Origin: Armatimonadota bacterium
GTDB taxonomy: Bacteria; Armatimonadota; Fimbriimonadia; Fimbriimonadales; GBS-DC
Length of the DNA: 64,000 nucleotides
Assembly: GCA_037444405.1 (NCBI GenBank)
Contig: JBBIML010000011.1
Span: 1-64,000 of the forward strand
Direction: 5' to 3'
Every line of letters begins with the position of its first letter. Within the stretch, counting starts at the first letter, position 1. The position numbers and the translations under genes are program-made. Shown here piece by piece: positions 56,938-62,008 of this stretch. The notes under the pieces were generated by a model. The model made no database searches. It was not told the DNA's origin and saw nothing but the letters and a program-made list of their open reading frames with translations.

Positions 56938-57672
56938 TCACCATGGTGTGGGCACGCGGCTCGGATCCTCGATCGCCCGTATCTCCGTTTTGATGCCCCA
57001 CTGCTGCAGGTCTTTGACCAGCATTTCGGCTTTTCGGCGTGGCAGGTTGGTCAGAATGACCACGGGCGCACTCTGGAGCAGTTTCTTCACATCGGGTCGG
57101 GTGAGCGTGAGGAACGACTCCAGATGGGCGATGGCTTCTTCTTCCTTCAGGCGTTCCACGCCGAGCAGCACCAGTTCGTAAGGTGTGGGGTCGTCCTGCG
57201 GCAGGGGCATAGAGACCTGTGTTTGTGCGGGGGCGACCACGCTGAACTCGCGCTGGCAATGCTCGCAGATGGCGGTTCGGGCACGGGGTGAGACCTTCTC
57301 GGTGGCGCGGCAGTGGGGGCAGCGCACCGTTACCACCTCCAGCACATGCCCGTTCTCCACCGGCACGAGCCGCCGACAGTGTTCGCAGGTGAAGTCGCTT
57401 TGCGGCGGCGCCACGAACACATTCTCCTTCTGGCAGTAGGGGCAGCTCACGGGATAGGCGGGGATATTGCGCGTTTTATAGAGTGACCAGCCCGCATATG
57501 CCCACGAGCCGAGCCACACCAGCCCGAAACCCCATGAGAAGGAGTGGAACATGCCCCCATAGCGCCAGAACAGCCATGTTAGCAGCAGCATCACCAGCCC
57601 CAGCAAACCATAGATGACGGCTTGCGTGTACTCTTTTTCCACAGCGTCAGAGCGCTTAACTGGCTCTTCCAC
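56938..57672 (-). CDS. Membrane-anchored zinc-ribbon protein with a C-terminal L7/L12-CTD-like domain
   Basis: Two TM helices, four CxxC pairs (CPYC, CEHC, CPHC, CEHC), then VKKLLQSAPVVIL.NL...KAE.L...L; GGGAGG before GTG 57672. Confidence 0.7.
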   Translation of the reverse strand: MEEPVKRSDAVEKEYTQAVIYGLLGLVMLLLTWLFWRYGGMFHSFSWGFGLVWLGSWAYAGWSLYKTRNIPAYPVSCPYCQKENVFVAPPQSDFTCEHCRRLVPVENGHVLEVVTVRCPHCRATEKVSPRARTAICEHCQREFSVVAPAQTQVSMPLPQDDPTPYELVLLGVERLKEEEAIAHLESFLTLTRPDVKKLLQSAPVVILTNLPRRKAEMLVKDLQQWGIKTEIRAIEDPSRVPTPW

Positions 57673-57724
57673 GCTTATCGCCTCCCTGTGGAAAGGGTTC
57701 GACCGACTGCCGCGCGATTCCTGC

Positions 57725-59692
57725 CTATTCCTCCTGACCCTCGTATTTCTCTTTGAGCGCCTGCACGACGGCAGGGTCGGCGAGGGTGGTGGTGTCGCCC
57801 AGCGCACGCCCTTCCGCCACATCGCGCAGCAGGCGACGCATAATCTTGCCACTGCGCGTTTTGGGCAGGTCGGCAGTGAAGATTATATCGTCGGGTCGGG
57901 CAAGCGCGCCGATTTTCGCCACCACATGCTGCTTAAGTTCCTCGCGCAATCGCTCATCGGCGGTGTAGCCCTCTTTGATAATCACGAAGGCAGCCACCGC
58001 CTGGCCCTTGATCTCGTGCGATTTGCCGATGACGGCAGCTTCGGCGACTGCCGGGTGATCCACCAGCGCGCTTTCGATTTCCATCGTGCTGAGGCGATGC
58101 CCCGACACATTGATCACATCGTCCACGCGCCCCAGCAGCCAGAAGTAGCCGTCCTCGTCGCGCTTGGCGCCGTCGCCCGTGAAATAGATGCCGGGGTACC
58201 GGCTCCAGTAGATTTGCTGGAAGCGTTCGGGGTCGCCGTACAGCCCGCGCGTCATCGCCGGCCAGGGGCGCGTCAGCACCAGATAGCCACCCCTGTTCGG
58301 CGGCACCGGGTTGCCCAGCTCATCCAGAATGTCGGGGAACACCCCTGGAAACGGCTTGGTGGCGGAACCGGGCTTGGTCGCCACGATGCCTGGCAGCGGG
58401 GTGATCAGAATCATGCCCGTTTCGGTCTGCCACCAGGTGTCGACAATCGGGCAGCGTCCGCCGCCGATATGCTCGTGGTACCACATCCACGCTTCGGGGT
58501 TGATGAGTTCACCGACGGTGCCCAGCAGGCGCAGACTGCTCAAATCGTGGCGGCGCGGGTACTCTTCGCCCCACTTCATAAAGGCGCGGATGGCAGTCGG
58601 CGCGGTGTACAGAATGTTCACCCGATATTTCTCCACTATCGCCCAGAATCGGTCGCGGTCGGGATAGTCGGGTGCGCCCTCGTAAATCACGCAGGTCACC
58701 CCGTTCGCCAGCGGACCGTACACGATGTAGCTGTGCCCTGTAACCCAGCCCACATCGGCGGTACACCAGAAGATGTCTTCGTCCTTGAGGTCGAAAACCC
58801 ATTTGCTGGTGATGGCGACGCCCACGAGATAGCCGCCTGTGGTGTGCATGATGCCTTTCGGCTTGCCCGTGGAGCCGGAGGTGTAGAGCAGATAGAGCAG
58901 GTCTTCGCTGTCCATCGGCTCTGGCTCGCAGGTGAGCGGCGCGTTCGCCATCAGCTCGTGCCACCAGAGGTCGCGCCCTTCCTGCATCGGCACGGTGTAG
59001 TCGCCACCGATACGCTGATAGACAATCACTTTTTCGATGGAGGGTGTGTTGCGCAGGGCTTCGTCGGCATTGCGCTTGAGCGGCACGATCGAGCCGCGGC
59101 GCCAGCCACCATCGGCGGTGATCAGCACCTTCGCCTGCGCGTCGTTGATGCGGTCAGCGAGGCTCTCCGCGCTGAACCCGCCGAACACCACCGAATGGGG
59201 CGCACCGATTCGCGCACACGCCAGCATTGCAATCACCACTTCGGGGATGAGCGGCAGATAGATACACACACGGTCGCCTTTGCGCACGCCCAGCGCCTTC
59301 AGCACATTGGCAAACTTCTGCACCTCGCGATAGAGGTCGTTGTAGGTCAGCACGCGCTCCTCGCCTGGCTCGCCCTCCCAGATGAGCGCGGCTTTGTTGC
59401 GCCGCCATGTCTTCACATGTCGATCCACGCAGTTGTAGCAGGCGTTCAGCTTGCCGCCGACAAACCACTTCGCATAGGGCGGGTTCCACTCCAGCACCGT
59501 GTGCCATCTCTGATACCAGTCGAGAATCTCGGCGCACTTCGCCCAGAACGCCTCATAGTCGCGCGCCGCCTCTTCATAAATAGCCGCATCGCTGATATTC
59601 GCCTGTCGCACGAACTCTTCCGAAGGCGGGAAGACCCGCTGCTCCTGCAACAACGCCTCAATCGCCATTGTGGTCTGCATCGTCTCCATCAT
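57725..59692 (-). CDS. acs: Acetyl-CoA synthetase (acetate-CoA ligase)
   Basis: [38 protein letters not shown]. Confidence 0.97.
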
Positions 59693-59836
59693 CTCACCTC
59701 ACAGGGGAACGATTCGCCAGCAGGCAGCCCTTTTCCTGCTTTATCTATGCCTCTGGGGGGCGAAACGGGATTTTTCTCCCTCTTGCAGGGAACTCTTGAC
59801 AGAGGTCTGGGGTATAATAGGGGTGAGGTGTTGCAT

Positions 59837-60037
59837 ATGGCAACAAGGAACGCAGTCAAGGAAAAGGTTCGCCTGAACGGCGTCGACTATGAGATCACGC
59901 TGACGCCTGCGACCACGAACGACCCGACCACGCTGAACACGCCGATCACTCCGTCTCAGCCGACCACGCCGCAGGAAGTGGTGCGTCGCGCACCTGCCGT
60001 CACCGAGCTGCCGCGCTGGGAGGACGGTATCGGCTAA
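59837..60037 (+). CDS. 66-aa candidate ubiquitin-like modifier ending in Gly
   Basis: TATAAT at 59813 and GAGGTG SD before ATG 59837; MATRNAVKEKVRLNGVDYEITL...VTELPRWEDGIG*; first gene of an E2/JAB-E1 operon. Confidence 0.75.
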   Translation: MATRNAVKEKVRLNGVDYEITLTPATTNDPTTLNTPITPSQPTTPQEVVRRAPAVTELPRWEDGIG

Positions 60038-60067
60038 GCCCTGGATCGCTGTTGCGGGGATGACACC

Positions 60068-60517
60068 ATGAACGCACGCCTGCAGCGGATCGCCTACGAG
60101 GCGGCGCTTGCTGCGACGCACTACTCGCAGACGAAGCAAGCCTCCTATGACGACGAGGACGGGGAGTGGGTCATTATTCACGACTTTCCGCTCCCCCGCG
60201 GCTACAACTACACCACCACCGATGTGCTGATTCTGCTGCCGCGTCACTACCCCCAGACCCCGCCTGACTGGTTCTATGTGGATTACAACCTGCGCTTAGC
60301 GAACGGGCAGCGTCCGCCCCATGTGTTCTATGGCGACACCTCCTATGACCCCAATCGGGGTCAGTTCCGCGAGGCGCCGCCCGCGCTGAAGGGCTGGACC
60401 GCCTGCTGCCTGCACATCCATGAGTGGCGCCCTGCAGCGAACCCGCTGGCAGGGCATTCCCTGCTGAGTGTGTGCGAACTCATTAAGAAGGCGTTTGAAC
60501 GCTGGCGACGCGGGTAG
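60068..60517 (+). CDS. Prokaryotic E2/UBC-fold conjugating enzyme (resembles Prok-E2 family E)
   Basis: WVIIHDFPLPRGY...VLILLPRHYPQTPPDWFY...W..CCLH...WRP pattern. Confidence 0.8.
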   Translation: MNARLQRIAYEAALAATHYSQTKQASYDDEDGEWVIIHDFPLPRGYNYTTTDVLILLPRHYPQTPPDWFYVDYNLRLANGQRPPHVFYGDTSYDPNRGQFREAPPALKGWTACCLHIHEWRPAANPLAGHSLLSVCELIKKAFERWRRG

Positions 60518-60520
60518 GGA

Positions 60521-62008
60521 GTGGAGCCGTTGCAAGCTCTGTGTGGCGAGGTACGCATCACGCGCACGCTCTGGACGCGCCTCACCGAAGCGCTTCTCGC
60601 TGACCGCTGTGTCGAGACGAAGTGCTTCATGCTGTGTCGCACGCTGGAGCTGCCAGGGCGAGCGGTGTTCCTTGTGCGCGAGCTGGTGGAGGTGCCGCCG
60701 GACGCCTACGAGGAGCGCTCCGCCAACCGCGTCATCACCCGCCCGGAGTTCGTGCATACCTTGCTGACGCGCTGCGAAGCGGAGGGCTGGTCGCTGCTGG
60801 AAGCCCACTCCCATCCGTGGACGCCCCGACCGCGCTTCTCCTCGATTGACCACCAGAGCGACTATCAGAAGTTCCGCGTCACCGAGGTGCTATCGCCCCC
60901 GTTTCGGCACGGCACGCTGGTGTTCGGCTCCGACATGGGCTTCGACGGGCACATGTGGGACTATGCGAACCAGCAGGTGGTGCCGATTGAGCGTATTCGC
61001 ATCGTGGGGCTGCCCTGCGAGACGCGCTATGCGACCGACCTCGCGCCGCCGGAGCTGGACAAAGCCCAGCGGGAGCTGTACGACCGTCAGGTACGCGCGC
61101 TCGGTGTGGAGGGTCAGGCGCTGTTGAGCCACCTGCGCGTGGCGATTGTGGGCGCGGGCGGGCTTGGCTCCCAGATTGCGCAGGCGCTCACCCTGCTCGG
61201 CGTCGGACATCTGACGCTGATCGACCCCGACCGACTGGAGCTGAGCAATCTGAACCGCATCGTGGGCGCCACCTGGTATCGCGCGATTCGGCGATGGCGC
61301 AAGGTGAAAGCGCTCGCGCTCTGGTTCAACCGCGCTCGCAGCCCCGAATGGCGCACCATCACGCCCCTGCCCGCCGATGCGCGCTCGCCTGAACTGCTGA
61401 CCACCCTGCTCGAAAGCGATATGCTGATCGGCGCGGTGGACAGCGCGACCGTGCGCCAGTATCTGAACCTGCTGGCGGTGTGCGCATTAATCCCCTATCT
61501 GGACGCGGGTGTCGGTATACGCGCGGAGGCGGGACGCATCGCGCAGGGCGGCGGACAGGTGCAGCTCATCCTGCCGGGCGAGACCGCCTGCCTCAGCTGT
61601 GTCGGGCATCTGGTGCGCCAGAGCGTGGAAGAACAGCTCACCCCTGAACAGCGTGCCATGTCGATCCAGCATGGCTACATTCAGGGCGAGCGGATACCCA
61701 ACCCGCAGGTGGTGTTCCTGAACGGCGTCGTGGCAAACCTGCTGGTGTGGGAGTTCGTGAAGCTGACCACGGGTTGCCTGCCCGCGCAGCCGTATGTCTA
61801 TTACGACCTGGTGGCACAGCAGGCGTTCCCTGCCGAAGCCGAACGCAATCCGAACTGCTTCCTCTGTTCCTATGAGGCAGGTAGCCTGCTGGCAACCGGG
61901 CTGGACGGCATCAATGGCTACCTGAAGCCGCCCCGCCAGAAGGCGCCGCCCGTGCCACGATCCCGAAGCGAATCTCCATCCCCTGACACGGAGGAGAGAC
62001 CCGCATGA
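60521..62008 (+). CDS. JAB/JAMM peptidase - E1 (ThiF-family adenylyltransferase) fusion
   Basis: Glu32 plus HSH-x8-S-x2-D (96-110); YDRQ, VGAGGLGS, IDPD..E.SNLNR, AVDS, two CxxC pairs (357/360, 446/449). Confidence 0.9.
   Translation: MEPLQALCGEVRITRTLWTRLTEALLADRCVETKCFMLCRTLELPGRAVFLVRELVEVPPDAYEERSANRVITRPEFVHTLLTRCEAEGWSLLEAHSHPWTPRPRFSSIDHQSDYQKFRVTEVLSPPFRHGTLVFGSDMGFDGHMWDYANQQVVPIERIRIVGLPCETRYATDLAPPELDKAQRELYDRQVRALGVEGQALLSHLRVAIVGAGGLGSQIAQALTLLGVGHLTLIDPDRLELSNLNRIVGATWYRAIRRWRKVKALALWFNRARSPEWRTITPLPADARSPELLTTLLESDMLIGAVDSATVRQYLNLLAVCALIPYLDAGVGIRAEAGRIAQGGGQVQLILPGETACLSCVGHLVRQSVEEQLTPEQRAMSIQHGYIQGERIPNPQVVFLNGVVANLLVWEFVKLTTGCLPAQPYVYYDLVAQQAFPAEAERNPNCFLCSYEAGSLLATGLDGINGYLKPPRQKAPPVPRSRSESPSPDTEERPA

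Follow-up and report, generated by a model that had tools for sequence, protein, structure and literature searches.

The window analysed here, a stretch of 64,000 nucleotides from an Armatimonadota bacterium (contig JBBIML010000011.1), carries a small gene that occupies the place of the ubiquitin-like protein (Ubl) in an operon related to the bacterial Bub pathway (formerly 6E; Table 1). This small open reading frame (ORF) is a real gene under purifying selection, since it is conserved upstream of the E2 gene, its ratio of nonsynonymous to synonymous substitution (dN/dS) is 0.106, and its variation is dominated by third codon positions. Its product, a proline-rich peptide, carries a conserved glycine, Gly64, followed by a short variable extension. 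We consider it rather probable that the peptide is a minimised modifier precursor of a Bub-type system, which would be trimmed after Gly64 by the JAB domain of a JAB-E1 fusion encoded in the operon, activated by the E1, relayed and conjugated. An earlier note, made from the sequence alone, had placed a modifier gene in this operon of E2 and JAB-E1; what we find there is a genuine gene in the Ubl slot, with orthologues upstream of E2.

A conserved small gene upstream of the E2 gene

The ORF listing displays the gene only as the last 66 codons of an 807-amino-acid frame (57614..60037) that is antisense to the acetyl-CoA synthetase gene acs. The earlier note had dismissed that frame as spurious and credited the small ORF with its own Shine-Dalgarno sequence and ATG, and this is confirmed: the product has 66 amino acids, and a Shine-Dalgarno-like stretch precedes its start codon at a distance of 6 nt. 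The gene (201 bp) lies entirely inside the 375-bp gap that separates acs from the E2 gene, and the plus-strand genes after it encode the E2, the JAB-E1 fusion and a zinc-finger protein, in this order.

We matched the E2 in 25 of 61 related genomes, including 24 of the 28 from the window's family and none of the 32 from the other families of the order; six of these 25 genomes carry two copies. Loci were built for 20 of the 31 E2 matches listed, and in every one of them tblastn placed a homologue of the small ORF immediately 5' of E2. The distance to the E2 start ranges from -4 to +32 nt (3 nt being the most common), and every homologue has its ATG preceded by a G-rich stretch of the GGGGG or GGAGG type, spaced as in the window. 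A scan of species-representative genomes yielded 39 loci, of which 30 from metagenome-assembled genomes (MAGs) of Armatimonadota (Fimbriimonadales) and the outgroup L051 are counted together as 31; all 31 have the small ORF upstream of E2, one copy (MAG L042) with an in-frame TAG. In a scan of metagenomes, the small ORF was present in 50 of 54 loci, corresponding to 38 distinct proteins. Of the small ORF, two of the four other loci keep only a C-terminal remnant and a third keeps no trace; the fourth is a locus of the classical Bub type.

Over 117 pairs, 0.106 is the median Nei-Gojobori dN/dS, and the variable columns are distributed over the three codon positions as 34/28/58. No Rfam match was obtained over 59600-60150 at E<=1, and therefore no known RNA element accounts for the conservation of the region. 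This substitution pattern contradicts the idea that the small ORF arose by chance, or that it is a decaying and now functionless remnant of a former BubAB fusion, which we regard as barely conceivable. Chance ORFs are indeed common in DNA as GC-rich as that of the window, one locus has the in-frame stop, three second-copy loci keep a remnant or nothing, and the sequencing runs listed for the region are four DNA runs of a single study, with no RNA run among them; yet a seven-residue ending is kept across four genera and the outgroup, and the Shine-Dalgarno-like sequences are conserved too. The TAG of L042 lies near codon 15 (about 2750-2760) and could be a sequencing error, a pseudogene or a case of readthrough; the E2, E1 and zinc-finger genes of that MAG are apparently intact.

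The family is narrow. A word-index protein search with the ORF returned its own cluster and one other, of 69 amino acids. A profile search of 1.84 billion representatives (HMMER) returned nine clusters, all of them members of the small-ORF family or frameshifted fragments, and no bridge to known Ubls. The profile had no match in 300 other genomes of the phylum outside the window's family, and the ESM Atlas gave no usable match. With PADLOC and NCBIfam, the four operon proteins produced generic E1 matches only; small ORF, E2 and zinc-finger protein each remained without a match. The single outgroup, L051, has an E2 that is 52% identical; a metagenome scan seeded with this E2 found no closer relative of L051, returning more Armatimonadota family members and one classical Bub locus. 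The small ORF of L051 (L051:2714-2947) encodes 78 amino acids, ends in LPLWEDG plus one residue, and opens, before the hairpin, with a near-duplication in which the unit F-T-D-V-P-x-x-V-V-E-x-N occurs twice in succession.

The small ORF and E2 share one reading frame, with one stop codon between them, in 12 of the 20 loci (gaps of 3 or 30 nt; window included), and the gaps in the other eight are -4, -1, 4 or 32 nt. A shared frame could have arisen if a stop codon had divided an earlier fusion of the BubAB type, but the count carries little weight because the loci share ancestry. A search for longer, fused forms of the E2 found none, which is weak evidence.

Constraint along the peptide

Members of the family are proline-rich and 61-70 residues long (L051 being longer). 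We compared the ratio of the proportions of nonsynonymous and synonymous differences (pN/pS) among segments. It is 0.12-0.22 in the predicted hairpin (residues 7-22) and 0.09-0.17 in the final 12 residues through Gly64; the residues after Gly64, at 0.49-1.19, are near neutral. According to the earlier note, the middle of the peptide is Thr/Pro low-complexity sequence, and a comparison of orthologues was to show whether it varies between conserved termini. The composition is as described (nine Thr and six Pro in residues 23-52), and hairpin and tail are conserved; however, the middle is a constrained, proline-studded sequence, with a pN/pS of 0.15 in other genera (0.46 within the window's genus) and with P24, N28 and E47 invariant, and it is the residues after Gly64 that vary. 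Compared with other genera, the window's version has a five-residue insert and extra Thr and Pro in the middle.

Within the tail, L58, P59, W61, D63 and G64 are invariant, Gly64 in every alignment, and 43 of the 50 metagenome copies end in LPRWEDG before the extension. The extension itself measures 2-7 residues and takes 17 different sequences in these 50 copies. Gly64, not Gly66, is the conserved C-terminal glycine. Gly66 is found only in the window and its closest relatives, and because it is not conserved, the direct use of Gly66 that the earlier note had allowed for is contradicted. Its other proposal, trimming after Gly64 by the JAB domain, would fit the invariant glycine followed by a near-neutral, disposable extension.

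An operon related to Type I Bub

Type I Bub (6E.1) is described in parts of a 2024 preprint by Ye, Gong, Chambers and Corbett on Citrobacter BubAB, BubCD and BubE (PMC11601596): the JAB of BubCD cuts the Ubl-E2 fusion BubAB right after a conserved glycine, the Ubl is relayed as oxyesters from a tyrosine in the E1 crossover loop to a Ser-x-His plus Asp site in the E2, and the DUF6527 protease BubE completes the operon. Bub Ubls consist of one to three beta-grasp domains, according to part of PMC11601603, and the parts of PMC11601596 concerned give the biological function of the published systems as still unknown. Judged by its sequences, the window operon is a relative of this pathway. The JAB-E1 fusion is homologous to its best solved relative, Citrobacter BubCD, across both domains (9ea4_A; 9.6e-24 by phmmer, query residues 12-425 on chain residues 10-408). 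Its E32, H96, H98, S107 and D110 align with catalytic positions of the BubCD JAB, and the E1 part has a glycine loop (211-216), D307 and a crossover tyrosine, Tyr386 (61676-61678), which all 13 of the sequences compared share and which aligns with the crossover tyrosine of BubCD. The E2 belongs to the Prok-E2_E/BubB family, with Citrobacter BubB as its best solved relative (9eae_C, 2.1e-6); it shares the conserved aspartate (Asp67, aligned to BubB Asp299) and the invariant histidine (His116). The product in the Ubl slot has a conserved glycine and then extra residues, as does the one cleaved by the JAB in Citrobacter, and the endings are alike, LPRxxxEG in Bub and LPRWEDG in the window's family. 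The enzymology of the operon thus looks intact and Bub-like.

The differences are equally clear. Unlike in Type I Bub, the Ubl slot holds a separate proline-rich peptide that lacks any Multi_ubiq or beta-grasp signal, and a zinc-finger protein stands where Bub has the DUF6527 protein BubE. The locus is chromosomal, lies amid housekeeping genes and is kept throughout the family (24 of 28 genomes); it is not part of a mobile island. The nucleophile column of the E2, Ser in Bub, is Cys in the window: Cys114, preceded by Cys113, occupies it in 11 of 11 aligned family sequences and in 49 of 50 metagenome copies, whereas the outgroup L051 and every canonical relative aligned have Ser. The E1 has two CxxC pairs unlike Type I Bub, both of them invariant, C357-x-x-C360 (61586-61597) in the region of the crossover loop and C446-x-x-C449 (61853-61864); BubCD lacks the first at the aligned position, and the second lies beyond the aligned region. 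Together they look like a structural zinc site, presumably resembling that of MoeB/ThiF-type E1s, and a catalytic role is also possible.

Canonical relatives retrieved in the same scans have a Multi_ubiq Ubl in this slot, as an E2 fusion in L055, L057 and L058 and as a gene of its own in L056 and L059 (Multi_ubiq scores of 5e-17 to 1.5e-6, over the cut-off, for the four scanned, L055, L056, L058 and L059). The nearest E2 relatives outside the family, bar L051, are L052-L054, from Omnitrophota and Planctomycetales MAGs (32-46% identity). As in the window, a separate small Ubl gene lies directly 5' of E2, the order is Ubl, E2, JAB, E1, and the first strands of the Ubl have a similar motif, I-N-I-E-G-x-x-Y. 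Unlike in the window, this Ubl is 81 amino acids long, resembles Multi_ubiq (4.9e-5 to 3.6e-4, just below the cut-off) and ends exactly at the glycine; JAB and E1 are separate genes, the E2 has Ser-x-His, and there is no zinc-finger gene.

Other systems resemble the window in part. Small, intrinsically disordered protein modifiers are known from bacteria as Pup and UBact. Pup is ligated through the side chain of its C-terminal Glu by PafA, a glutamine-synthetase-like enzyme, without E1, E2 or JAB, and the hallmarks of Pup/UBact are an adjacent PafA/Dop-type ligase and a C-terminal Gly-Gly-Gln/Glu. The window differs in both respects: the neighbours are the E2, JAB-E1 and zinc-finger genes (as seen in the operon; the genome was not searched for PafA), and the peptide ends in ...WEDG plus a variable tail. 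No search returned sequence similarity between the small ORF and Pup. In Type II CBASS, as parts of PMC11601596 describe, E1/E2 and JAB activities (Cap2/Cap3) act, as they would here, on a C-terminus that belongs to no beta-grasp Ubl, and E1 recognition can therefore rest largely on a C-terminal tail; unlike in the window, the protein conjugated is a large signalling enzyme, the CD-NTase, the E2 and E1 are fused, and the context is a defence island.

A literature search returned two Bub preprints from the Corbett laboratory and nothing on a Bub modifier without a beta-grasp or on an Armatimonadota system of this kind, which the supplementary operon catalogues (Table S1) might list. The type of pathway is thus already known (Bub/6E). 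What appears new is the candidate modifier without a beta-grasp, the putative pairing of a Cys E2 with a Tyr E1, the zinc-finger partner and the family-wide chromosomal inheritance.

The tail is modelled in the adenylation site of the E1

We modelled a complex of the full JAB-E1 (with an alignment of 13 sequences) and residues 1-64 of the peptide (with its own alignment), together with ATP and Mg. The median score is 0.72, and the highest-scoring of three controls reaches 0.00. The runs share at least 90% of their contacts, with a partner pLDDT (predicted local distance difference test score) of at least 56. The model places the last 13 residues, with Gly64 at their end, in the adenylation site of the E1 and not on the JAB domain, in line with the entry of the tail into that site raised by the earlier note. 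Confident contacts on the side of the peptide are confined to residues 52-56 and 58-64. On the side of the E1 they involve G211 and G213-G216 (the glycine-rich nucleotide loop), A305-D307 (the region of the conserved Asp), A329-I333, Q342-Q346, A356, V361 and G362 (the start of the crossover loop) and residues within 394-441. E1 residues 333-350 align with a BubCD segment described, in parts of PMC11601596, as a beta-hairpin buttressing BubA.

A short, largely unstructured substrate whose tail docks in an adenylation site also recalls microcin C7, in which the ThiF/E1-like domain of MccB adenylates the C-terminus of a short, unstructured ribosomal peptide, MccA, and MccB (PDB 3h5n) is among the solved relatives of the window's adenylation domain (1.9e-5). 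The small ORF might then encode a ribosomal precursor whose C-terminus is adenylated for a modification of the small-molecule type rather than for attachment to proteins. We hold this to be very improbable: the match to MccB is far below that of the whole protein to BubCD, the E1 protein begins with a JAB peptidase domain and not with a peptide clamp, and an E2 with a conserved Cys-x-His/Asp site always adjoins, whereas MccB and MccA work without E2 and JAB and their product is a peptidyl-nucleotide antibiotic. Moreover, the operon contains no exporter or immunity gene, and the conserved end is Gly, while the C-terminus of MccA is Asn.

Relation to the ubiquitin fold

The two ends of the peptide resemble Ubls at the level of motifs. 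The first strands of the peptide and of Multi_ubiq Ubls have the common pattern V/I-x-V/I-N/E-G-x-x-Y/F, and the canonical Bub Ubls in the retrieved loci end in LPRDQTEG, LPLDQTEG, LPRDQIEG or LPLDQTDG, which resemble LPRWEDG. The stretch from the NG turn to the LPR motif counts 40-42 residues in the peptide, 16-18 fewer than the 58 of a canonical Ubl, and contains 6-8 prolines at intervals of 2-8 residues. We ran AlphaFold2 twice, on the window protein with 24 sequences and on a relative with 28. Both models contain a hairpin (7-13/16-22) and otherwise only a helical turn at the C-terminal tail (61-64, first model), with predicted template modelling scores (pTM) of 0.26 and 0.23, a mean pLDDT of 72 and 69, and a pLDDT of about 70 in the coil. 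On whether the peptide alone forms a canonical beta-grasp, which the earlier note had made a matter of structure prediction, these models speak for a hairpin and no beta-grasp, on shallow alignments of 24-28 close relatives. Foldseek (E<=0.001) matched the AlphaFold2 model to no PDB entry, an outcome to be expected of a non-globular model. An autonomous beta-grasp is thus unlikely as far as the models go. The Multi_ubiq search of the window's genome, which is 98.9% complete, found no other Bub-type Ubl.

Several results weigh against our interpretation of the peptide as a conjugated modifier. None of 24 members of the small-ORF family matches Multi_ubiq (PF14452) even at E<=10, and hhalign against five canonical Ubls gives a probability of 5% over 12 columns of the first hairpin. 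A hidden Markov model (HMM) built from canonical Ubls scores the family at no more than 5 bits (hmmsearch --max); it comprises 37 sequences, namely seven Ubls from the loci and 30 of the 120 close Multi_ubiq proteins listed among 764 that a homologue search with the canonical L056 Ubl returned. A PDB profile search with the family gave one chance match (E 1.3). From these sequences, descent of the peptide from the ubiquitin fold cannot be shown statistically, and the case for a Ubl rests on gene position and on the motif-level likeness at both ends. The likeness of the N-terminal hairpin to strands 1-2 of Ubls, as claimed in the earlier note, is thus upheld by the predicted hairpin and the motif but not by the profile alignment; the "hollowed-out ubiquitin fold" of the same note is right about the absence of a beta-grasp from both models and lacks statistical support as to descent. 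With alignments this shallow, the missing fold is itself weak evidence, and relatives have Pro-free stretches of 5-7 residues that could form a tiny compact fold.

The complex model, for its part, leaves the hairpin and the connector unplaced. The mark applied to its score is reached by 116 of 157 solved complexes and by 2 of 215 mismatched pairs, a calibration that holds only roughly here because each partner came with its own alignment and ligands rode along, and the pass may reflect memory of Gly-ended tails because BubCD-BubA has already been solved. The peptide substrate of an E1-like enzyme that does not conjugate would show the same binding to the E1. In second copies without an E1 (of the L038/L039/L047 type), the tail drifts to LPNWQDG or LPEWQDG, and the metagenome loci L075-L077 keep a remnant of the small ORF or nothing.

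One alternative that these points leave is an ordinary, very small Ubl with a compact beta-grasp-like domain (hairpin, short strand, two-turn helix, last strand) that AlphaFold2 missed. ThiS-size proteins can be beta-grasps; the Pro-free stretches could supply a short strand, a seven-residue helix and the last strand; the middle is constrained in other genera; the pLDDT of the coil is not very low; and the HMM of canonical Ubls aligns strand 2 and helix 1, without significance, to residues 29-48 of relatives. We nevertheless find it decidedly unlikely in view of the low pTM and the lack of secondary structure from residue 23 to 57-60 in both runs, the shortened and proline-studded segment between hairpin and tail, the absent Multi_ubiq signal, and the insert with additional Thr and Pro that the window version carries in its middle.

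The peptide could also be a partner of the E2 or the E1 that is never conjugated, acting as a pseudo-substrate, regulator or adaptor, or be the physiological target itself, an account that we judge unlikely. Its tightest linkage is to the E2: in 8 of the 31 species-representative loci, no E1 gene adjoins the small ORF and its E2. Of these eight loci, L037, L041, L048 and L050 comprise small ORF, E2 and zinc finger, and L024, L038, L039 and L047 small ORF and E2 only. The tail alone is confidently docked in the complex model, and homology to Ubls is not demonstrable. On the other hand, an invariant glycine and, behind it, a neutral extension of variable length are what marks a species processed and activated at its C-terminus, the modelled site of the tail is the adenylation site and not a regulatory surface, the gene sits exactly in the Ubl slot of related operons, and no other Bub-type Ubl was found in the genome to take its place.

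Proposed pathway

Under the modifier interpretation, the 66-amino-acid product would be translated from its own Shine-Dalgarno sequence and ATG, both visible in the sequence. The JAB domain of the JAB-E1 would cut off IG and expose Gly64. Such a cut is suggested by the invariant glycine with its neutral tail, by the intact active-site residues of the JAB, and by the published finding that BubCD cleaves BubAB directly behind the conserved glycine. The E1 would then grip mainly the last ~13 residues and adenylate Gly64, as in the complex model. By analogy with Tyr370 of BubCD and Ser333 of BubB, the acyl group would pass to the crossover Tyr386 and on to Cys114 of the E2. The Cys in place of the BubB Ser is directly visible in the E2 alignment, and the relay may thus run from an E1 Tyr oxyester to an E2 Cys thioester. 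A final acyl transfer would deliver the peptide to a target lysine, perhaps, to speculate, with the aid of the co-transcribed zinc-finger protein. Hairpin and connector would probably be what is recognised as the mark, or they would take up a fold only on a partner.

More tentatively, and with more doubt than conviction, we propose that this would be the first dedicated E1/E2-conjugated modifier without a beta-grasp. It would be a peptide of ~62 residues in which only the hairpin and the Gly-ended tail survive and which the E1 recognises essentially by the last 13 residues, with a hybrid Tyr/Cys relay and a new zinc-finger partner, vertically inherited in thermophilic Armatimonadota and probably serving a housekeeping or stress-regulatory role, not phage defence.

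The fourth gene, promoter region and neighbourhood

The zinc-finger protein of the window has a KPIPxNRRW N-terminus and two CxxC...HxxC fingers, with only sub-threshold RING, PHD and zinc-ribbon Pfam matches. Across its family an invariant M(A)KPIPxNRRW N-terminus is followed by an acidic linker that varies and by one or two CxxC...WVHxxC fingers, and the gene follows E1 or E2 in 22 of the 31 species-representative loci. The fourth gene does not match DUF6527, for which the sole match in the genome is sub-threshold (16.7 bits, E 0.019) and on another contig, and the ESM Atlas returned unnamed clusters only. In L051 the fourth protein has a membrane-type segment instead of fingers and keeps the IPINRRW start. 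In other genera, the C-terminus of the E1 ends in KPIPxPRG. Since this ending resembles the N-terminal motif of the zinc-finger protein, the two stretches may be docking or acceptor peptides.

A consensus promoter scan called no plus-strand sigma-70 site upstream of the small ORF because a perfect TTGACA (59796-59801) and a perfect TATAAT (59813-59818) are spaced by just 11 nt; the TATAAT sits 18 nt ahead of the ATG. The wider neighbourhood is of the housekeeping kind, with genes for a Ham1-family protein, a low-molecular-weight phosphatase, a SIS-domain protein and an amidohydrolase.

Table 1. Features of the small ORF, its operon and the adjoining acs gene in the window.
Feature	Position	Strand	Remarks
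Small ORF, candidate modifier precursor in the BubA position	59837..60037	+	ATG 59837, TAA 60035-60037, 66 codons
Shine-Dalgarno-like purine-rich stretch GGGGTGAGGTG	59820..59830	+	6 nt before ATG, read from sequence
Predicted beta-hairpin, residues 7-22, V-x-L/I-N-G/D-x-x-Y/F-E-I	59855..59902	+	AlphaFold2 strands 7-13 and 16-22
Thr/Pro-rich connector, residues 23-51	59903..59989	+	coil in both AlphaFold2 models
Conserved C-terminal tail APAVTELPRWEDG, residues 52-64, ending at Gly64	59990..60028	+	entry into E1 site predicted
Variable extension IG, residues 65-66	60029..60034	+	removal by JAB predicted
E2-like protein, Prok-E2_E/BubB relative	60068..60517	+	PF14462 4.2e-14, above cut-off
Putative E2 nucleophile Cys114	60407-60409	+	alignment of catalytic column with BubB-type E2s; Cys113 at 60404-60406
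JAB peptidase-E1 fusion, BubCD relative, 495 aa	60521..62008	+	ThiF 2.9e-36; Prok-JAB weak, 0.068
Zinc-finger protein in the place of BubE, 138 aa	62005..62421	+	start overlaps E1 stop
Acetyl-CoA synthetase (acs)	57725..59692	minus	AMP-binding 4.3e-89, ACAS_N 1.4e-20

Implications

To our knowledge, every modifier handled by E1 and E2 is a beta-grasp protein, and the fold is usually part of the definition, with the enzymes conjugated in cyclic-oligonucleotide-based antiphage signalling systems (CBASS) as the exception. If the peptide is trimmed, adenylated and conjugated as we propose, E1/E2 machinery would need only a Gly-ended tail, and the peptide would be a natural minimal tag for probing what the body of ubiquitin contributes. 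The system would also offer a thermostable and genetically compact means of conjugation. The switch from Ser to Cys in a Bub-like E2, with the E1 Tyr retained, is a natural experiment on oxyester versus thioester relay. Because conservation on the chromosome is family-wide, the sequences suggest that a Bub-like pathway has a cellular role in these bacteria.

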